This document shows, in pieces, positions 2,841 to 25,108 of a stretch of DNA of 25,170 nucleotides. Within the stretch, counting starts at the first letter, position 1. Each line of letters opens with the position of its first letter. The DNA lies in IMG/VR virus record IMGVR_UViG_3300010361_000036, positions 1-25,170 of that record, one strand, 5' to 3'. The notes under the pieces were generated by a model. That model worked only from the letters and a program-made list of their open reading frames with translations. It was not told the DNA's origin and ran no database searches. The position numbers and the translations under genes were made by a program. Source of the stretch: a virus. Lineage: Duplodnaviria > Caudoviricetes.

Positions 2841-2876
2841 TCGCCTCGCCTTTCCTTTTGCCTTCACCCTCAGGGC

Positions 2877-4012: not shown

Positions 4013-5949
4013 GCCGCCTTCCCTGCTATTGCTAGCTCCGAGAGCTTACGCGGGCTCGCGCCCATGACTACTGCGCGCTGCTCATCCGTTAGGGAGGCCA
4101 TCCACTCATCGACCGTACCCACAGAAACGAGCCGGTAGACGATGACCTGATGTATCCGGGATACCCGGTGAATCCGCGCGTTGAGCTGCTCATCCCGGTC
4201 GGAAACCCACGGGAGGTCAAGGACAACCATCTCATCCGCCGCATCGAGCGTAATCGACTCGCCACCGGCATCCCGGTTGATAACGACTACAGAGAGCTTG
4301 TCATCTGGGTCCTGGAACCTCTCGACTAGGCGAGCCCGGTCACGGTCAGAGGTCGCGCCGGTAAGCGTATGGACCTCTAGGCCAAGCTGGTCGCGGAGTA
4401 CATCGGCCGTAAACTCCACCCACTCCGTGAAGCTGCTCGCGATAACGACCTTGGCTCCGGAGTCCATCCGCTCCTGCATAAACTCGATAAGCCATTCGAT
4501 CTTGTTCGACGGTAGGGCCGGAATGATCTTGCGGCCTTCCGCTAGAGAGCCGGAGCCGTTCGCGAACTGCCGTAGCCGCGTAATCTCCGCGAGTACGCCG
4601 GTAGCCGTGATACGGCCCTCCGGGAGGTTCGCCTCAGCCTCAGCCTCCATCTGCCAGTAGAGCTTGGCCTGATCCGGGAGCATGTCTATCTGGACGTACC
4701 TAGGCGACTCGTCATCGTCTGGGTCGATGGGCGTTCCGGCGTACTGAATGGGAGGGAGATCCGGCGCAGCGTCGGCCTTGGTCCGCTTGAGGTAGTACGG
4801 CCGCAGCATCCGGTCCCAGGCCTCAGGATCTCTCGGCTCCAGGACCTTAACAGGCTTGCCGTCCGGGCCGGTGCCGCCTACAATCTTCCCCCAGCGGCCT
4901 TCCTCTACGCCAAAGTGCGTCTCGGCAAACCGCCAGTACGAGCTGAAGACATCCGGCCGGAGCCAGTTAAGCGTGCCCCAGCCTTTCTCGACCTTAGACC
5001 GGAACGGAGTCCCACTCATCGCGATAGCGAGCCCGCCATCAACGAGCCGCTTACGGAGCTGCATCGCGCCGAAACGCTGCTGCGTGATCCGCTTGCTCTG
5101 GACGTTCGCGGTAGACGCGAGCAGGTTGTGCGACTCGTCAAGGATGATCGCGTCCCACTCGTTATCGGTCAGGAACGGCCATTGCGGCTCCGCGTGGATC
5201 TTGTGCTTGGGGTGGCCCGCTGGCGGACGGCCCTTGTAACGGCAGTCGCCGTTGGTCTCAGGGCACGTCTCGATTCGCTTCGCCCGGATCATCTCGATGT
5301 TGATAATCAGCATCTTCGGGCCAGGGCCGGCCATCCAGAAGTCGGCCATCGTCGCCATCCGCTCCGTCCGCGAGCCCTGCGCCACGAACGTCTTGATATG
5401 CGGAGTCCACCGGGCCGTCTCCCGCTCCCACACGGTACGGGTAGCCGTACGCCGGCACGCCACGAGGATACGGTTGCTACCGGCCTGAACCACCGCCGCG
5501 AGGCCCTGTAGAGTCTTGCCTAGGCCTGGGTCATCGCCCAGGATGACATCGCGGCCGGTAAGGATGAAGCCGGTGCCGCTAATCTGGTACCGGCGAGTCT
5601 GTAGAGCCGCGTAGAGCTTGGGAGCCCGCTCCGCTACCCGCGAGAGGTCAACGGCCTCAATCGCTTCCTCGCGTAGCGTCTCCAGGCTCCGCTCACGGCT
5701 GACTTCCTCCTGTGCCCAGCGCGCGAGGACCGGCATCACGGTCAGCTCATCGCCAAATACGCGGCGGAATGCCCGGCACGTTTCCATCGAGAGCGGGTAG
5801 ACCCAGCCCTTGAACACGTTTGGAGTGACGGTCTTGTCCCAGTCCGCACGGGCTCCGGGAACCTGCTTGGCAAGCTTCGGGCCGTGCCCGTTCGCGTAGT
5901 CGATACGCGCCATGATCCGCTTGCCGTCCGTCGTGATCGCTGCCTTCAT
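4009..5949 (-). CDS. SNF2-family (SF2) helicase
   Basis: LGDDPGLGKT (motif I), IILDESH (II), MSGTP (III), GGESITL (V), QLNARIHRVS (VI). Confidence 0.92.
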   Translation of the reverse strand: MKAAITTDGKRIMARIDYANGHGPKLAKQVPGARADWDKTVTPNVFKGWVYPLSMETCRAFRRVFGDELTVMPVLARWAQEEVSRERSLETLREEAIEAVDLSRVAERAPKLYAALQTRRYQISGTGFILTGRDVILGDDPGLGKTLQGLAAVVQAGSNRILVACRRTATRTVWERETARWTPHIKTFVAQGSRTERMATMADFWMAGPGPKMLIINIEMIRAKRIETCPETNGDCRYKGRPPAGHPKHKIHAEPQWPFLTDNEWDAIILDESHNLLASTANVQSKRITQQRFGAMQLRKRLVDGGLAIAMSGTPFRSKVEKGWGTLNWLRPDVFSSYWRFAETHFGVEEGRWGKIVGGTGPDGKPVKVLEPRDPEAWDRMLRPYYLKRTKADAAPDLPPIQYAGTPIDPDDDESPRYVQIDMLPDQAKLYWQMEAEAEANLPEGRITATGVLAEITRLRQFANGSGSLAEGRKIIPALPSNKIEWLIEFMQERMDSGAKVVIASSFTEWVEFTADVLRDQLGLEVHTLTGATSDRDRARLVERFQDPDDKLSVVVINRDAGGESITLDAADEMVVLDLPWVSDRDEQLNARIHRVSRIHQVIVYRLVSVGTVDEWMASLTDEQRAVVMGASPRKLSELAIAGKAA

Positions 5950-5964
5950 CGTCGCCTCTCATCG

Positions 5965-6008
5965 TCGCCTTCCGGCCCAAGTCTACTCCAGTCTGGACCG
6001 GAAGGCGA
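5965..6008 (-). promoter_or_regulatory. Promoter (GTAGACTTGGG) inside an 11-bp inverted repeat
   Basis: -10 TAGACT at 5980-5985; arms TCGCCTTCCGG (5965-5975) and CCGGAAGGCGA (5998-6008). Confidence 0.6.
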
Positions 6009-6020
6009 ACGGAAAATGCA

Positions 6021-6293
6021 CTAGACGCAGCGGCTAGGCGAATTCTGCTTTGTTGGCATGGCCGGCCCACAGTGGACGTAGCCGATCAGGACCCACATCC
6101 ACCCGATACCCGGTATGTACTGGCACTGGTAGATATAGCCGTTAACGGCCTTGTAGAAACCCTGCTGCCAGTAAGGGCAGGCCCCATCAGTCGGCACGGC
6201 AGACGATGAGGCCCTAGCCGCTCCCGCCAGAGCCAGGGAGGCTCCGAGAGCGAGCGAGACAGAGAGCACGAACGCGAGGATTAGCCGTCTCAT
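6021..6293 (-). CDS. Small secreted Cys-containing protein
   Basis: ATG 6293 after GGAAGGGA; signal peptide MRRLILAFVLSVSLALGASLALAGAARA; mature part has 4 Cys. Confidence 0.65.
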   Translation of the reverse strand: MRRLILAFVLSVSLALGASLALAGAARASSSAVPTDGACPYWQQGFYKAVNGYIYQCQYIPGIGWMWVLIGYVHCGPAMPTKQNSPSRCV

Positions 6294-8416: not shown

Positions 8417-8679
8417 GTCGCATCCATTCCGTCTCGGTAGCAGAGGTCTGCTATCTCAAGTACCGCTTCCTCCAGGACCGGGCTCAGCTCGATTACCCGG
8501 ATGATGACGGCCTTGGTATCGGGCGCAAAGCCAATCATCGCCATTTCCCGCGAGGTAAGCTCGCCTCTCATCGCCCTGAGGATAAGCTCAGCATCCTCAG
8601 CGCCTCTTGCCCTCCGGCCCGTGCTAGCCATCTCAGTCGCCTTTCTCAGTAGTCCTACCGGTATTCTACCGGACTCCAT
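8413..8679 (-). CDS. Hypothetical protein (88 aa)
   Basis: Tiles the operon; start uncertain. Confidence 0.6.
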   Translation of the reverse strand: MESGRIPVGLLRKATEMASTGRRARGAEDAELILRAMRGELTSREMAMIGFAPDTKAVIIRVIELSPVLEEAVLEIADLCYRDGMDAT

Positions 8680-9002: not shown

Positions 9003-9614
9003 CTAGGCACCCTGGCTCCGGCAGTCAGGCCCGATCCCAAGAGCCCGCGAGGTCTCATCGGTAAGATGCCGGTTACACTTCCGGCACTGGCCCAGCTCGA
9101 CTCCGTAGCGAGTCCCGCAGACCTCGATGCCTTCCGTAATGATCGCGGAGAGCGCACCGAACCGGGTAGCACCGCGCACCGGAGCCTCCGGCTTGCCGCC
9201 GATGATCCGCTTGACGAATATCCTGCCGGCCCACCGGCCCTCAGCCGGGCAGTCCACCCGCCAGAAATCGTAGTCGTTTTTGCCGGTCAGGCTCGCCGTC
9301 GCGTAGTGTCCGGCCGGAATGTTCTTGAAGTCCTCGCGGAAGGCCGGAGCCCGCAGGCCGGCCATCGCCGTCTCCGGTACCGCGATCTTCTCAGGGCACG
9401 TACCGTCAAGGTGGAATACGTCCCACCCGCTCTCAGCGTTCCGCTCGATACGCCCAGCCTGGGCCTCTACGCGGTGCCCGCACTTGACGCAGGTTCCCGC
9501 GAACTTGTTGGAGCGGACGGCCGGAGCGGAGCCCTCGCCACCGCCCACCGCGTAGCACGCGCGGACTTCCGCGACAGTCTCGTGCTCGTGGCCCTTCCCA
9601 CACCGAATCGCCAT
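9003..9614 (-). CDS. DUF6011-like zinc-finger protein
   Basis: ATG 9614 after AGGCGACGAAAGGCGA; NKFAGTCVKCG and C-terminal CRKCNRHLTDETSRALGIGPDC. Confidence 0.75.
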   Translation of the reverse strand: MAIRCGKGHEHETVAEVRACYAVGGGEGSAPAVRSNKFAGTCVKCGHRVEAQAGRIERNAESGWDVFHLDGTCPEKIAVPETAMAGLRAPAFREDFKNIPAGHYATASLTGKNDYDFWRVDCPAEGRWAGRIFVKRIIGGKPEAPVRGATRFGALSAIITEGIEVCGTRYGVELGQCRKCNRHLTDETSRALGIGPDCRSQGA

Positions 9615-9661
9615 TTTCTCGCCTTTCGTCGCCTCGCCGGATCTTCTCTCCGGCCGCATAG

Positions 9662-10903: not shown

Positions 10904-10917
10904 CTTCCGTCGCCTTT

Positions 10918-11154
10918 CTAGCCGGTCACCGTGTGGCCGATACGCTCCGCTACCGACACCAGGGTGGCGCGCGTAGCGGGCTTGTTCCTCCGCGAGTAGA
11001 CCGTGTAACCGGTCGCGTAGCCGGAGGCAGCCGTCTGCCGCCAGAGAATCGTGCCTTTTGAGTTCATAACCCAGAGGTAGGTAACCCTGCCCTCATGGCT
11101 CGTGGTCCGGATACGCGCGGCCTCCGTCGCGCCATTCGCGGTGATCTTCGCCAT
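10918..11154 (-). CDS. Hypothetical protein (78 aa)
   Basis: ATG 11154 after GAGGCGAAAGGCGAGGAA. Confidence 0.7.
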   Translation of the reverse strand: MAKITANGATEAARIRTTSHEGRVTYLWVMNSKGTILWRQTAASGYATGYTVYSRRNKPATRATLVSVAERIGHTVTG

Positions 11155-11197
11155 TTCCTCGCCTTTCGCCTCACGGAGCCGCGCGGCTCCGCATAAC

Positions 11198-12100: not shown

Positions 12101-12124
12101 CGTATCGCCTTTCGTTTCGCCTAG

Positions 12125-12710: not shown

Positions 12711-12737
12711 GTCGCCTCGCCTTTCTCGATTGCCTAC

Positions 12738-13306: not shown

Positions 13307-14971
13307 TCACCTCCGGTTCTCAAGAGCGTATTCGCGGAGCCAGTCTTCATCATCATAGAAACCCTGGACCCATGTCCGCTTATTTCCACGGCACATAAGG
13401 ATCTTACCCGGTCCCTCTATACATTCGGCAGCAGGATTCCCGACAGTCCGGGCAAACTGCCCCGGAAGGAAGCCTGCCGCGCCGAATACCGAGAAAGCCA
13501 TTTTGAGGCTCTCGCCTCCCATAGCCTGATCCCGGAGGTCCTGGAACATCCACTCTCCGAAGATCCGGGCCTGCCTTCCCTGCCGGAGTAGCGGGCCAAC
13601 GCACTCACCCCAGATTGACGGGCTCGCGGTAGTCTCGCCAAGATTATTCTTCCAGTAGCTCTTGTAGCACGCGCCTAGATCGTTGCCCTCATCGACCAGT
13701 AGCCAGATATCGTTGAAGTCACGCTCAGTCGCGCGGCCTTCCCGGATAGCCGCATACCGGTCGCGCATTATGCCGGCGAGCGTAAATGGCAACTTCCAGA
13801 TAGCCTCCATATCCGACTGCGGGTTGTCGAATATGTGAACGCGCGGAATCCCCTTGAGGTGAGTAAAGGAAACCTGCTTGGTATCGATACCATACACTTC
13901 GGCCGCAGGATCATTGTGGCAGATCTGCGCCGCCTTGATAAGGAAGCCCATGGACTTCCCGGTGCCGGAATTCGCGAACCGGCAGTGCCACGGAGAGTCG
14001 CCGTTATGGCTACTCACGTACATCGACCGGTCAGCTACCACGCCCACGCCTAGCTCGCGCGGCCGGAGGCCCTGAAGCTGAGGCAGGTAATCGCGGAAGC
14101 GGACCTTGTCCGGTAGCGAATGCTCGACTACCGGCACCCACGACAGGGTACGCGGCGTCTCCGTAGTGGTCCACGAGAAACGGACCTTGCCCCGCGTATG
14201 CGCCTCTATGATCTCCTGGATGGGCTCCCGCTCTTTGAGTAGGGCTGCGAACGTATCCGGGAGCGCAATCGAGCCCGACTCCGGAGTCAGCCGGAGCCGC
14301 GAGGACACCTCAGCCGTAGAGCACCCCATCCGCGAGGCGAGCAGGCCGGCCAGGACGCTATGTGGCACGCCTTCCAGCTGCGGTGCTCTCTCTTCCACGA
14401 GTACCGGAGTCGAGCCAGACGTCATCTCATCCGCGCTAAACACAGTCTTCGCCCGGATAGTCATGGCGGTGGCCGGCTTGTGAACCGGACTGAGCTTCCG
14501 GATCTTCTCACGCTTCCGGTACACGGCCAGGGAGATCCGGGCCGTTATCAGGATCACGATCACGATCGTAACGGCCCGGACGGTCCCAGCCGGGTCAATA
14601 GCCATACAGCTAAGCAGCACCAGGATAACGAAAACTGCCAGGTTATTCCTGACGGCCCGGTAAGGCCGCGAACGGGGCGTGAAGTAGACGATGGTACCTT
14701 CTGCGGTCGCACGGCTACTCCCTCCGGCCGTACGCCTATTCAGACGCTCATCACCATAACTCTTGTCCGGATGGATATGCAGCCCGGTATGGAACCGGTA
14801 GAGCACCTTATGAATCTTGCCGGGCCGTCCGGGATGGCGCCAGCCTAGGTACTCCTGCGCATAGCCGTTAATCATCCACCCAGCAGCCATGAAGGTGTAA
14901 AGCCCGAACCAGATCACAAACGGGACCCACCACTGAACGTGAAGATGCCGCAGGACATAATCAGTAGTCAT
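13307..14971 (-). CDS. Membrane-anchored FtsK/SpoIIIE (TraB-like) ATPase
   Basis: N-terminal hydrophobic helices; variant Walker A ANSGTGKS, IDTK, Walker B LLVDE, LRQGRQ...Q motif typical of FtsK-HerA ATPases; no C-terminal winged helix. Confidence 0.8.
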   Translation of the reverse strand: MTTDYVLRHLHVQWWVPFVIWFGLYTFMAAGWMINGYAQEYLGWRHPGRPGKIHKVLYRFHTGLHIHPDKSYGDERLNRRTAGGSSRATAEGTIVYFTPRSRPYRAVRNNLAVFVILVLLSCMAIDPAGTVRAVTIVIVILITARISLAVYRKREKIRKLSPVHKPATAMTIRAKTVFSADEMTSGSTPVLVEERAPQLEGVPHSVLAGLLASRMGCSTAEVSSRLRLTPESGSIALPDTFAALLKEREPIQEIIEAHTRGKVRFSWTTTETPRTLSWVPVVEHSLPDKVRFRDYLPQLQGLRPRELGVGVVADRSMYVSSHNGDSPWHCRFANSGTGKSMGFLIKAAQICHNDPAAEVYGIDTKQVSFTHLKGIPRVHIFDNPQSDMEAIWKLPFTLAGIMRDRYAAIREGRATERDFNDIWLLVDEGNDLGACYKSYWKNNLGETTASPSIWGECVGPLLRQGRQARIFGEWMFQDLRDQAMGGESLKMAFSVFGAAGFLPGQFARTVGNPAAECIEGPGKILMCRGNKRTWVQGFYDDEDWLREYALENRR

Positions 14972-15858
14972 CAGCCGCTCCGCTCCTCATCCGGATGAGC
15001 GGCGTAGTATGCGTCCACTCCCTCCGGGAGGATACGGCCGTGCGTACCTACCCTGTCCTTCCACTCCGGCTGAGTCCGGAGCCAGTCGCGGATATGGCGC
15101 ACGGGAGAATGCGGGCTCTGCGACCCAGAGTGGCGCGTACGGGTGTCGGAGTAGCCGGAGGCCCGACGCTGCTCGCGATGCTCGCGATGCTCCCTGAGGA
15201 CGCTCTCTGGCTCGACTACGGCTGGATCTGCGGCCTCCTGCGGAGCCGGAGCGGGCTCGCTGACCCGCTCGCGTGTGTTCCTGACACGGTCGGCCTCGCG
15301 CCGGAAGTCATTCACGACCGTAGTGGCGGCCGCCACAAGGGCATCCCTCCTGGCAATCGTGATATCCCGGAGCTTGCCAAGAGTCGAGAGCGGGAACAGT
15401 AGCCACGCCATCACGCCGAAACTAGGCAGCGGTGACGGGTAGATCGATCCGGCACGGGCAAGAGCCTTCCGCTTCTCCCACCGTATGTGGATCTCGTAAA
15501 CGACCATCGCACCTATCGGTAGCGCTGCCCACATGATCCAGGAGCCCGGTAGCTCGTGATCGATCCGGGCATGGAGCGTCTGGAGGAAGGCTGCGGTGAA
15601 CGCGAATAGGCGGACAACGAACTTTGGAAAGCTACCCGATAGCCCAGCCTGGGCGTAATCGACAGACTTTCGCGCCGCGAATAGCGCCACCCCATCGAAA
15701 CACGTACTGAACGCGATAGCGATGAACCATGGCGCGCCCAGATACCGGCCGATGTAGTAGAGCGAGTATGCCGAGACGCCTAGGATAGGCACCAGCACGA
15801 CTAGCCATAGGAAGCCACCCACGATTACGTCAATGGCTCGCCTGACCGACTTCCACAT
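14971..15858 (-). CDS. DUF2637-like multi-pass membrane protein with a C-terminal Lsr2-type DNA-binding domain
   Basis: Four hydrophobic helices with S...L...G, FDG, H and ALP..YE patterns; C-terminus IRDWLRTQPEWKDRVGTHGRILPEGVDAYYAAH resembles the Lsr2 pattern IRxWA...V..RGRIP..V..AY.AA. Confidence 0.75.
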   Translation of the reverse strand: MWKSVRRAIDVIVGGFLWLVVLVPILGVSAYSLYYIGRYLGAPWFIAIAFSTCFDGVALFAARKSVDYAQAGLSGSFPKFVVRLFAFTAAFLQTLHARIDHELPGSWIMWAALPIGAMVVYEIHIRWEKRKALARAGSIYPSPLPSFGVMAWLLFPLSTLGKLRDITIARRDALVAAATTVVNDFRREADRVRNTRERVSEPAPAPQEAADPAVVEPESVLREHREHREQRRASGYSDTRTRHSGSQSPHSPVRHIRDWLRTQPEWKDRVGTHGRILPEGVDAYYAAHPDEERSG

Positions 15859-15882
15859 ATCCCTTTCCCTTTCGCTATGGCG

Positions 15883-15930
15883 GCCCCATGGCTATGGGCC
15901 AAGTATACGGATGGGGCAGGGGAATGGCTA
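15883..15930 (-). promoter_or_regulatory. Promoter of the repeated family driving the transfer-like operon
   Basis: TAGCCA-17 nt-TATACT-TGG; GCCCCAT/ATGGGGC arms flank the -10. Confidence 0.6.
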
Positions 15931-15952
15931 GAGGAATCCGGTTATGGAACCA

Positions 15953-16447
15953 TTACCTGCCCGAATCGCGGAGTAGAGCCCGGATAACGGCCGGAAGCTC
16001 ACGGATTATGATCCAGTCCTCATCCGACATCACTGCCCAGAATGCAGGGTTATCCGCTATCTCACTGATCGCACCGGAGGCCGTCATCACCAGCCCGTGC
16101 GCTGAGTGGTCCTCTGGCTCCCGGTGCCGGCCTCCGGCGCTGCCCTTCCCGGAGCCCTCGCCTGGGTCGCCACGGACCTCTACTGAATTGTAGATCTCGT
16201 TGAAGCTGGGCAGCCCTCCGTCCGCATCGAGCCCGCCAAGCTTCCGGCCTACCAGGTCCCAGCAGTTGAACATATACCGGACGTGCGTATGGCTCTTGCC
16301 TATTTCCTGCCCCAGCTGACGCCGCGACTTGCCTTCATTGACTTCCTCCCAGATAAGCTGCGCAGCTATCCACCGGTGCTCGCTTGTCGTGGCGTCATTC
16401 CGGTCGGCTATTGCCTCGTGCTTCCTGATTTCCTCTACCCGGTCCAT
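15953..16447 (-). CDS. Helix-turn-helix DNA-binding protein
   Basis: GKSRRQLGQEIGKSHTHVRYM HTH signature; GGAGGGAG RBS. Confidence 0.7.
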   Translation of the reverse strand: MDRVEEIRKHEAIADRNDATTSEHRWIAAQLIWEEVNEGKSRRQLGQEIGKSHTHVRYMFNCWDLVGRKLGGLDADGGLPSFNEIYNSVEVRGDPGEGSGKGSAGGRHREPEDHSAHGLVMTASGAISEIADNPAFWAVMSDEDWIIIRELPAVIRALLRDSGR

Positions 16448-17655: not shown

Positions 17656-17753
17656 CGAATCGCCTTTCGTCGCCTTGTTATTGGGGCCTGCCACGGGCCT
17701 TCCCGCTACCCTGTTGCCGGCATCCCGGCTGGTTCTGGCCTCAGCCCCAACAC

Positions 17754-18443: not shown

Positions 18444-18530
18444 GATTTCGCCTTTCTGCGATTGGACGTTCCCGGACGGAACGCCTAGCCAGGGCCCACA
18501 AGGCTCTCGCTACGCACTCCGTACGTACGG

Positions 18531-19239: not shown

Positions 19240-19263
19240 TTTCTCGCCTTTCGTCGCCTGGGG

Positions 19264-19331: not shown

Positions 19332-19994
19332 CTACGGGGCAACAAACCCCATGGTCTCGCCCCATCCCTCGCCGTAGAGAGCCGCAAACGCAGCTTCCTC
19401 ATCGCGGAGTACCTCCACGAGCCACCGGGCGCACTCGTCATCGGGCTCGCCGTAAGCGCCGATCAGCTCGCAGACGTCGCGCAGGAGGTGAACCGCGACT
19501 AGCGCGGAGTCAGAGGCGAACGTCTCGGAAACGCGAGCGGAGTCAAGCTCGCGCTCACGGACATTCTCCCAGAATCCCGTAGGGTCGGGCCTTTCGCAGT
19601 TCCACGTCAGGTCCTCCGCACCGGGCATCGCGTAATAAAACGGCTCCGGGGCAGGCCCACGCCTCGCGTAGGTATACCGGCCCTTCAGAATCATCTCGTC
19701 AAACTTCCGGGTAGCGCGGTAGGTCACCGGACGGCCATCGATCACCTCAGAGATACGCCGGAGGAACCCAGGCTCATCACCCTCTCCGGTCAGCATCCGG
19801 AGGCCATCGCTCAGGATAGCAATCCGGCCATCGGCTAGCGTCACGCCGGCCATAAAGGCCGACCACCTACGGCCCAGAAACTCTCCGGCCGGAGACCACC
19901 ACGCGCACGGGACCTTATAGGTCTCAAGGTCAAGATACGCGATCTCGCGCCGGTACGTTCCCGGCACCTCGATCAGCCTAGCTTTCTCCGCCAT
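19332..19994 (-). CDS. RNase H-fold 3'-5' exonuclease-like protein (YprB/RNase_H_2-like)
   Basis: ATG 19994 after GAAAGGCGACGAAA; YLDLET, VTYRATRKFDEMIL and HLLRDV resemble the ExoI/II/III motifs. Confidence 0.6.
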   Translation of the reverse strand: MAEKARLIEVPGTYRREIAYLDLETYKVPCAWWSPAGEFLGRRWSAFMAGVTLADGRIAILSDGLRMLTGEGDEPGFLRRISEVIDGRPVTYRATRKFDEMILKGRYTYARRGPAPEPFYYAMPGAEDLTWNCERPDPTGFWENVRERELDSARVSETFASDSALVAVHLLRDVCELIGAYGEPDDECARWLVEVLRDEEAAFAALYGEGWGETMGFVAP

Positions 19995-20018
19995 TTTCGT
20001 CGCCTTTCTCTCGGATAC

Positions 20019-20397: not shown

Positions 20398-20616
20398 TCA
20401 CATACCGGTCGATTCCATCCAGCCTCCGATGAACCGCGCGTGCCCTCTATTCTCATCCCACTCGCCGGAGCCGATCACTACGACGTCAGGAATCCAGACG
20501 CTACCAGCCTTCAGTTCCTGCCTCAGGCTATCCGTCCGCTCATCCTCGTGATTAACGTCATGGCTTTCCGGTACGGTCTTGCCGCAGAAGTTACACCACT
20601 TCGCACCTTTAGGCAT
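20398..20616 (-). CDS. Small protein with a CxxC...H motif (72 aa)
   Basis: ATG 20616 after GGAGGAAG, overlapping the stop of the RuvC-like gene; WCNFCG...H...H. Confidence 0.6.
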   Translation of the reverse strand: MPKGAKWCNFCGKTVPESHDVNHEDERTDSLRQELKAGSVWIPDVVVIGSGEWDENRGHARFIGGWMESTGM

Positions 20617-21172
20617 TCGCTTCCTCCGGGAAATCGACGGTCCACAAGGCCCGGTAGGGCCATAGCTGCTTCGCAAATTCAGTATTCTCGCGGGCTCGCC
20701 GGAGGCCGGTAAACGCATGCCGGCACGCATCGCGGATATGCTCGCTTCCCTCTACCCATAGCCCACGCGAGCGGAGCCGCTCATCCGTGTACGCCTGCTT
20801 TGCTAGCGAGCGGTCCTGGAACGTGAGGGTTGCGTCGCCTAGCTTCCCCTGATGCCGGAGTAGCGAGAGCATCGCGCCTATCCGGATGGGGCTGAGCTGA
20901 TCTGGGTCCGTGGACTTGTATGTAGGGTCAATCGTCCAGCCCTCGCAGATCACGGCAGGGCCAGCCTTGTACTCGATTCCCTGGACCTCACGGATAAGCC
21001 GCGCGATCTCGGTTGCCTGAACTTCCTCCGGGCCGGTGAACTCGCCCCAGTCATACTCCAGTACCTCCGGAGGATGCCCGGCAAAAATGCTGTAGCGCGG
21101 AACGGTAACCACGTACCATCCCGTAGTGCCTCCAGGGTCTATGCCCATTACGTGAATGTTCCTTGCGGTCAT
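20609..21172 (-). CDS. RuvC-like Holliday junction resolvase
   Basis: VMGIDPGGTTGW, VICE, HIRDACRHA. Confidence 0.8.
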   Translation of the reverse strand: MTARNIHVMGIDPGGTTGWYVVTVPRYSIFAGHPPEVLEYDWGEFTGPEEVQATEIARLIREVQGIEYKAGPAVICEGWTIDPTYKSTDPDQLSPIRIGAMLSLLRHQGKLGDATLTFQDRSLAKQAYTDERLRSRGLWVEGSEHIRDACRHAFTGLRRARENTEFAKQLWPYRALWTVDFPEEANA

Positions 21173-21204
21173 CGCCTATCCCCAGCCTTTCCGCCTTTCG
21201 CCTC

Positions 21205-21300
21205 AGGAGCGCCAGGCCGGCCAGGGAGGCGACGCCCTGACCGGCCGGCAAATCGTGCGTGGGCCCAGTGAAAGGCGATAACCCTGGGCGCTGCCGCCGC
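21205..21300 (-). ncRNA. Candidate two-hairpin RNA whose loops are antisense to the start-associated motif
   Basis: Stems 21263-21268/21284-21289 and 21216-21226/21235-21245; minus-strand loops GGTTATCGCCTTTCA and CGTCGCCT; -10-like TATTCT at 21310-21315. Confidence 0.55.
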
Positions 21301-21346
21301 ACTAAAACGAGAATACCCTACGCGGCCGGAAAGCGGAAGCGAGCCC

Positions 21347-24608: not shown

Positions 24609-24935
24609 TTACTGTCCTTTCTGCGTTGCCTTAAGGCTGATAACCCGGAGCGGGCTCGCCGTCTGATAGCAGCCCTCTACTCCCATGTAGTCATTCTCGG
24701 GATCGGGCTCATACGAGCCCGTGGGCTCTACCGCGTAGATATACACATCCCGCCAGTAGCCGAGAATTTCGGCAAATTCCTCGTTACCAAGGAAATCCGC
24801 CCAGTATTCAGCGGCCGTCATGTTGTCGGAAAAGAACACATGCTCCATCGGCTCATCCGCAAAGTTCGCGGGAAAGCCTATGGAGACTAGCTCGCCGTCT
24901 GCTAGCCGTGCCGGGCTCGCGTGGTAGTACGTCAT
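24609..24935 (-). CDS. Arr-like (rifampin ADP-ribosyltransferase family) ART-fold protein
   Basis: ATG 24935 after GAAGGCGAC; YYHAS, L..GE, GFPANF, HVFFS, IYAVEPTG.YE.DP and Y.T..PLRVI parallel the Arr motifs FYHGT, HIYFT, VYxVEPTG.FE.DP and YRS..PLRV. Confidence 0.7.
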   Translation of the reverse strand: MTYYHASPARLADGELVSIGFPANFADEPMEHVFFSDNMTAAEYWADFLGNEEFAEILGYWRDVYIYAVEPTGSYEPDPENDYMGVEGCYQTASPLRVISLKATQKGQ

Positions 24936-25108
24936 GTCGCCTTCCGTCTGGGCCGGAGCCCTAGGGAGGAACCGCACTCGGTGGGGGCTGCCCACTCTGC
25001 TCTATACCGGCCCGGAGGCCGGAGCGGCTGCCTTACGCGGACGGAACGGGCCGGAAGTCCTCTCAGCACCCGTCATATCCCTGTTCCCTAGGGCTCCGGT
25101 AGCTCTCT

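Follow-up and report, generated by a model that had tools for sequence, protein, structure and literature searches.

We propose that the tailed bacteriophage (Caudoviricetes) represented by IMG/VR record IMGVR_UViG_3300010361_000036 uses a small RNA to silence a set of its own genes. In the 25-kb record that we analysed (positions 1 to 25,170, hereafter the window), an RNA of about 98 nucleotides (nt) is predicted from the minus strand at 21205..21302, and the complement of one of its loops, loop A, recurs as a tag directly ahead of many start codons. Our reading is that this RNA, roughly 100 nt long, pairs through loop A with the tag, which overlaps the ribosome-binding site of non-virion genes, and that it would thereby block the translation of these genes as a set; we put the probability of this at about 0.7. 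The strand, the -10 box, the compensated stems, the complementarity, the co-variation and the restriction of tags to non-virion genes all come from sequence comparison. On these comparative grounds, we regard it as confirmed that the element is a real, conserved RNA gene of the minus strand.

The element heads the leftward non-virion arm, flanked by the divergent primase-polymerase gene (21445, plus strand) and a RuvC-like gene (21172, minus strand). Hairpin A consists of an inner stem (P2; 21289-21284 / 21268-21263) and loop A, GGUUAUCGCCUUUCA, at 21269..21283, and is closed by an outer stem (P1; 21302-21298 / 21259-21255). Hairpin B (P3; 21210..21250) follows, with a long compensated stem of about 12 base pairs, one of them G-U, and loop B, CGTCGCCT, at 21234-21227. 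The -10-like hexamer TATTCT (21310..21315) lies 7 nt ahead of the first stem. A preliminary description of this DNA had placed two minus-strand hairpins and the hexamer at 21205..21315; they are present as described, with the outer stem of hairpin A as the part that was missed. We drew this structure from the fold, from three alignments (A3, A4 and A6) and from pair counts. When both strands were folded, as the preliminary description had proposed, single sequences only modestly beat their shuffles (z of -2.2 to -2.5 for the minus strand and -1.5 to -2.0 for the plus strand), so the case rests on the relatives. Scanning the window for promoters and terminators with an E. coli-type consensus returned nothing, and the -10 box was not picked up.

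The tags are strongly enriched and oriented. AGGCGA occurs 67 times in the window, 53 of them on the minus strand, compared with 23.3 +/- 5.0 expected (0 of 100 shuffles reach this number). The complement of loop A, GAAAGGCGA, has 14 minus-strand copies and a sole plus-strand copy, which is loop A itself. Eleven of the 14 minus-strand copies end 0-10 nt ahead of an ATG with an open frame of 35 codons or more (background 0.083). Together with AGGCG-type leaders at 5949, 21172 and 24935, this makes 14 tagged starts, in agreement with the approximate number first given. All are on the minus strand. A tandem tag, AGGCGACGAAAGGCGA, is found at 9634, 17675 and 19259, ahead of the starts at 9614 (a DUF6011 gene; 9615..9634), 17655 (17656..17675) and 19239 (19240..19259), and loops A and B are complementary to its two halves, as had been claimed. 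Other tags precede the ATGs at 19994 (GAAAGGCGA; 19995..20008), 18443 (18444..18456), 11154 (11155..11171), 10903 (a phrog_421 gene; 10904..10918), 8631 (8632..8645), 2840 (a PD-(D/E)XK exonuclease; 2841..2854) and 24935 (an Arr-ms domain gene; 24936..24944). Those ahead of 12710 (12711..12725) and 12100 (12101..12122) are among several that sit just below a TAGACT-type -10 box, and a -10-like box reading GTAGACTT recurs upstream. Two AGGCGACG tags precede the SNF2-type helicase ATG at 5949 (5950..5970), and the RuvC-like leader (21173..21204) holds several copies. In a read-through transcript, loop A is predicted to pair in cis with this last leader over the AUG, which is consistent with the cis action suggested earlier.

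Duplex energies separate tagged from untagged leaders. With accessibility ignored, the 14 tagged leaders have loop A duplexes of -15.3 to -20.7 kcal/mol, and 12 untagged leaders have duplexes of -5.4 to -14.2 kcal/mol. Duplexes of the tagged leaders with an assumed 16S tail range from -6.9 to -12.8 kcal/mol, again with accessibility ignored.

To collect relatives, the RuvC-like protein was used in searches that gave 34 viral and 40 metagenome loci; 22 were dropped as duplicate, truncated or distant, and 52 were kept. Of these, 48 (46 distinct, as L150/L179 and L003/L182 are redundant pairs) have the element on the ruvC strand and upstream of that gene, often with other genes inserted between the two. 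Alignment or a model, R1, found 39 of the 48 (L173 only partly), and 9 distant ones were found by eye from hairpin scans. R1, for which 31 of these sequences served as the training set, had one full-length match per contig, on the same strand. The element was not found in L171, L189 and L207, each of which holds less than 700 nt upstream, or in the distant dropped loci L167, L168 and L208. R1 gave no match on 11 further loci, 10 of them from cultured phages, and blastn of the element against cultured phages gave short chance matches only. A second marker contributed a single further locus, L277, and within 4 kb there no element was found. Pattern scans of DNA added no members: the 120 loci from a loose pattern were judged to be chance, and a tight pattern matched a single locus, already known, and a single chance repeat (L278).

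Among 23 aligned elements, 99.1% of the cells of stem B are paired and double-sided changes occur at 12 of 14 pairs; the structure used for these counts was drawn from one alignment row, and P1 is less well aligned (71.7%). The same stem contains 44 G-U cells and 3 unpaired ones. As these 44 cells would be A-C on the plus strand, the minus strand is the RNA strand, which extends to the relatives an argument first made from the single G-U pair of the window. In addition, P1 is preceded at 2-14 nt by a TANNNT box in 36 of 36 elements, compared with 10% of random positions. These two results bear on a reading in which the plus strand is a CsrB/RsmZ-type decoy that shows AGGCGA, or in which the hairpins form a DNA or RNA replication origin by the primase-polymerase gene. 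The plus strand folds too, a decoy would co-vary with the leaders as well, the element does adjoin the primase-polymerase gene, and cluster A mycobacteriophages have RNA-based origins (PMC7157519). However, the 44 G-U cells would turn into A-C mismatches on the plus strand and would be weak in DNA, the -10 boxes are on the minus strand, and the motif is present in one or two copies only, whereas CsrB/RsmZ decoys show theirs in many loops; here the transcribed strand carries the complement. An origin would also leave the tags at start codons unexplained. The decoy, proposed in the preliminary description, is contradicted by these data, and we give either version hardly any credence.

The element seems to occur in two arrangements. 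In L158, L162, L166 and L200, a second -10-like box separates it from ruvC, mostly after a pyrimidine-rich tail (read by eye), which points to a stand-alone RNA. In other relatives, a Shine-Dalgarno sequence and start codon come directly after the element, which there is thus a 5' leader as well. U-rich tails come after hairpin B in several distant relatives, and hairpin B is possibly a leaky terminator or a 3' shield.

The second line of evidence is that loop and leader change together. We compared orthologous leaders, those of the first gene after ruvC, at 22 loci. The commonest pair is leader GAAAGGCGA with loop UCGCCUUUC. Locus L151 has loop CUAGCCUUUC and leader GAAAGGCTAG, and AAGGCGA is absent from its contig; L156 has loop UCCGACUU and leader AAGTCGGA, L143 has loop UUCCGGCUU and leader AAGCCGGAA, and L179 has a GGTAA leader and a UUACC loop. 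Flanking bases track as well (GAC/GUC in L145, GAA/UUC in L152 and GAG/CUC in L144). Summed complementarity of the cognate pairs is 180, a value reached in 0 of 100,000 permutations that ignored kinship and that had a mean of 143 (n=22). Co-variation of this kind had been put forward as a check, and it was found. Because L143, L156, L148 and L155 belong to one clade (100/98) with different loops and L151 sits in another, at least three of these loop/leader switches were likely independent.

Whole genomes give a similar picture. Genome G010 has three antisense segments, each with matching leaders. In G018, CAUGAUCUCGCC matches GGCGAGATCATG at 4 ATG starts, among 12 matches to GCGAGATC, and CAU lies within the loop. 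G020 has loop CUCGCCUCC and leaders GGAGGCGA; we also observed in it three separate hairpins with loop ACUCGCCUCC at C1:3995(+), 15605(+) and 73543(-), and leaders there read GGAGGCGA. In a matrix of 16 genomes, cognate complementarity is 92 compared with 51.7 on permutation (13 of 100,000 permutations). Counts of G-U and A-C in the loop/leader duplexes (145 and 159) show no clear asymmetry. Judged by these comparisons, the evidence that the RNA would pair with a tagged regulon is strong, and what the preliminary description had claimed in this respect is borne out by the conserved -10 box, the compensatory stems and the co-variation.

Loop B behaves differently. Only the window, L153, L187, L188, L191 and L190 have a loop B antisense to the tag, and in the lineage of the window it complements AGGCGACG; in the L001/L002 clade, which has 22 loci, loop B bears no relation to the tag. 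No targets of loop B were found at starts in G001, G004, G008, G012 and G013. Loop B thus appears to be a lineage-specific second seed and not the core, so the two-loop clamp first described for this RNA is supported only in part: it could apply to the window and those five loci but not to the L001/L002 clade. In several of L144, L145, L146, L150, L151, L152 and L157, loop B keeps GAGCGC. No target for this version was found in the phage genomes tested, and it is possible that it has a host target or is a protein site.

The targets are restricted to one class of genes. In the complete relative G010, 16 open reading frames (ORFs) carry a tag, namely the primase-polymerase gene and 15 of the non-virion arm. 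Tags are absent from the virion block both in this genome (0 of 30 ORFs) and in G011, another complete relative (0 of 28); these counts rest on simple ORF calling. The loop covers the Shine-Dalgarno core of the leaders and in G018 covers the AUG as well. The match over the AUG favours repression over a role as adaptor, and the position over the Shine-Dalgarno core, together with loop A duplexes that are stronger than 16S-tail duplexes, favours occlusion of the 30S subunit. Repression of the tagged genes is therefore likely by this comparison, in support of the shut-off that had been suggested as one outcome.

The other outcome suggested was a role as translational adaptor or activator, in which the RNA would bind the tag and aid ribosome loading. 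This would fit the weak Shine-Dalgarno core of some G010 leaders and the purine-rich Shine-Dalgarno sequence after hairpin B in many relatives. However, the loop occupies the Shine-Dalgarno core itself, and the AUG in G018, tagged leaders pair with the assumed 16S tail as well as untagged ones do, and the stand-alone relatives end in pyrimidine tails, without a Shine-Dalgarno handle. We consider an adaptor very unlikely.

Alternatively, the RNA could guide a protein, such as the adjacent RuvC-like nuclease, to cleave tagged mRNAs. The RuvC-like gene (20609..21172, minus strand) is the constant downstream neighbour of the element, and the conserved stem B could serve as a protein handle. Residue 148 of the protein, equivalent to the last catalytic aspartate (D148), is alanine in 29 of 48 homologues, and D12, E77 and H145 are kept. 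However, tblastn relates the gene to annotated actinophage resolvases, and the AlphaFold model of the protein (mean predicted local distance difference test score, pLDDT, 92.7) matches RuvC structures, best those of dimeric Holliday junction resolvases. RNA and ruvC are often parted by genes or a second promoter, we saw no link between the state of D148 and leader type, and the resolvase is present without the element in cultured phages. A guide role for the RuvC-like protein thus has little support, and we regard it as highly improbable.

Repression by pairing could serve a different purpose, namely immunity. The RNA of a resident phage, as carrier or prophage, would then silence its own early genes and those of superinfecting relatives, and tag switches would define immunity groups, as c4 RNA does for phages P1 and P7. 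This possibility draws on the rapid switching of loop and tag within a tight clade, which fits selection for new specificity, on the host-type -10 box, on the three same-loop hairpins in G020 and on the c4 precedent (PMC5320573, PMC12197685). Against it, no integrase was found among the 43 G010 ORFs of at least 120 amino acids (52 called) that were scanned against PHROGs, and most relatives retain the same UCGCCUUUC loop. More generally, no antirepressor or integrase was matched among the scanned ORFs, a scan that left out the small ORFs of the relatives. The promoter of the RNA is similar to the one of the adjacent tagged operon; this is compatible both with delayed negative feedback and with immunity. 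We think immunity as the primary role unlikely, if less so than the adaptor or the guide.

Our preferred model, in which the RNA represses the tagged genes during growth, can be set out as follows. Each tag would combine a working Shine-Dalgarno core (AAAGG or GGAGG) with a phage-specific suffix (CGA or a variant). Tagged mRNAs would be translated until the stable RNA builds up and outcompetes the 30S subunit, and the untagged virion genes would escape, giving a delayed shut-off in lytic growth. Hairpin B may terminate or shield the RNA, with read-through supplying the RuvC-like gene, whose leader in this phage would be folded shut in cis; the predicted fold covers both the leader and the AUG.

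Several observations weigh against this model or limit it. The element was not found in L164/G019, and no U-tract follows hairpin B in the window. Neither permutation test takes kinship into account, and at gene insertions the leader was chosen by the analyst (that of the inserted gene for L143 and L146, that of the orthologue for L155). Of the 22 orthologous leaders, that of L173 lacks a match, and those of L149, L147 and L179 have only 5 contiguous pairs. The cognate RNA ranks first or tied in only 8 of the 16 genomes and does poorly in G011, G002, G003 and G012. The likely terminase start in G014, a gene assigned by size and position only, is tagged. Lastly, the promoter of the RNA, being like that of the neighbouring tagged operon, does not show late timing.

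How does the element compare with known systems? Rfam gave nothing at gathering level, only sub-threshold matches. The nearest known mechanism is the c4 antisense RNA of P1/P7, a three-stem-loop RNA that is processed by RNase P and controls one antirepressor operon (PMC5320573, PMC12197685). As with c4, a short structured phage RNA would be cut from or head a longer transcript, its loops would pair near ribosome-binding sites, and related phages differ by matched changes in RNA and target. However, c4 has three stem-loops closed by P1 whereas the element has two domains, P1/P2 and then P3; the element has no match to the Rfam C4 covariance models, and its predicted targets, 14 or more, are scattered over the non-virion arm instead of forming a single operon. 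It is not a c4 member.

The tags themselves resemble the start-associated sequences (SAS) and extended start-associated sequences (ESAS), oriented and over-conserved tags in cluster K mycobacteriophages and cluster EF Microbacterium phages (PMC3203893, PMC7302621, PMC4351075), the function of which was still called unknown in 2024 (PMC11373665). Both are oriented tags with a Shine-Dalgarno core 3-9 nt ahead of the start codons of non-structural genes, but the tag here, GAAAGGCGA, is shorter than the 13-bp SAS consensus, GGGATAGGAGCCC or GGGAAAGGACCCC, and differs from it, and no sequence or model match of the element to K or EF phages was found. Upstream, where cluster K has ESAS as 17-bp inverted repeats, only the recurrent GTAGACTT box was seen in the window. 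Pope et al. noted that K1 phages have one SAS in reverse orientation and left open whether its partner is RNA or protein. In the K1 phages Anaya (L253:34871) and Adephagia (L254:33683), we found this lone reversed SAS in a hairpin loop below a TAGACT box. The 92-93 gap that holds it in Adephagia is the reported start of late transcription (PMC11373665) and is conserved in 217 records. In the right-arm parts read, Pixie, ShedlockHolmes, OkiRoe and TM4 have SAS but lack the antisense loop, and Amohnition has a near match. The EF phage Sparcetus, in the parts read, likewise has SAS and no such loop. Thus, such an RNA cannot account for all SAS. We regard the K1 hairpin as analogous to the element and non-homologous.

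Bacterial RNAs such as GcvB and RyhB pair through a seed with multiple targets. Like these, and like GibS/FopS of Bacteroides, the element would direct one seed at a motif common to many translation initiation regions. Unlike them, the RNA shares a phage genome with its targets, and both change sequence in step. Actinobacteria are not known to have Hfq. T4 RegB also turns off early mRNAs through a motif in the Shine-Dalgarno region (PMC1702504), but RegB is a protein endoribonuclease, whereas the specificity element here is an RNA loop. The preliminary statement that no phage system like this was known needs amending, since c4 and the cluster K SAS are partial precedents; in the literature covered, which left out most subscription papers, we found no description of a phage RNA that silences its own tagged gene set.

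The window encodes, besides the genes already named, a Sak4-like protein, and its primase-polymerase is bifunctional. Cultured relatives of its proteins, at about 30% identity, are from Gordonia, Mycobacterium, Rhodococcus and Microbacterium phages. Because these are actinophages, an actinobacterial host is likely, as judged from protein relatives and GC content only; a scan of a genome collection found no prophage or host. Contig L007 is 100% identical to the window primase-polymerase over residues 300-738, and it continues beyond the window end with more tagged starts.

A few further observations concern single genes. The minus strand at 5940-6030 has a second copy of the antisense sequence, TTCGCCTTCCGG, upstream of the -10 box that belongs to the helicase gene; by prediction, transcripts that read through fold over the tag of the helicase (z -4.3) and short ones remain open, and similar pairing is predicted in G012, G013 and G014. 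A small tagged ORF at 24609-24995 (minus strand) matches the Arr-ms (rifampin ADP-ribosyltransferase) domain (E 1.6e-9). At 13307-16447 (minus strand), a weak FtsK/SpoIIIE match (E 7e-4, below the cut-off) adjoins a phrog_10376 gene and a possible helix-turn-helix gene, a layout that we take to be reminiscent of the conjugative modules of actinomycete elements. In L002 (10730-11140) and its orthologues, a conserved 135-amino acid gene follows ruvC; it has invariant cysteine and histidine residues, is possibly zinc-binding and has no PHROG match.

The shut-off of early phage genes is generally attributed to proteins; here we find the comparative signature of a regulon under a single phage RNA. 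In this conserved RNA family, one loop and many start sites have undergone compensatory changes in nature. In a bolder and more tentative version, which we would not yet favour, it may be an RNA-only master repressor whose loop and tags are re-coded into new immunity groups, with the same logic separately evolved behind the K1 SAS tags. The finding gives a concrete hypothesis for SAS tags that is testable in a cultured phage, Adephagia in M. smegmatis, and the loop/tag pairs found in nature would provide Actinobacteria with orthogonal switches of translation.
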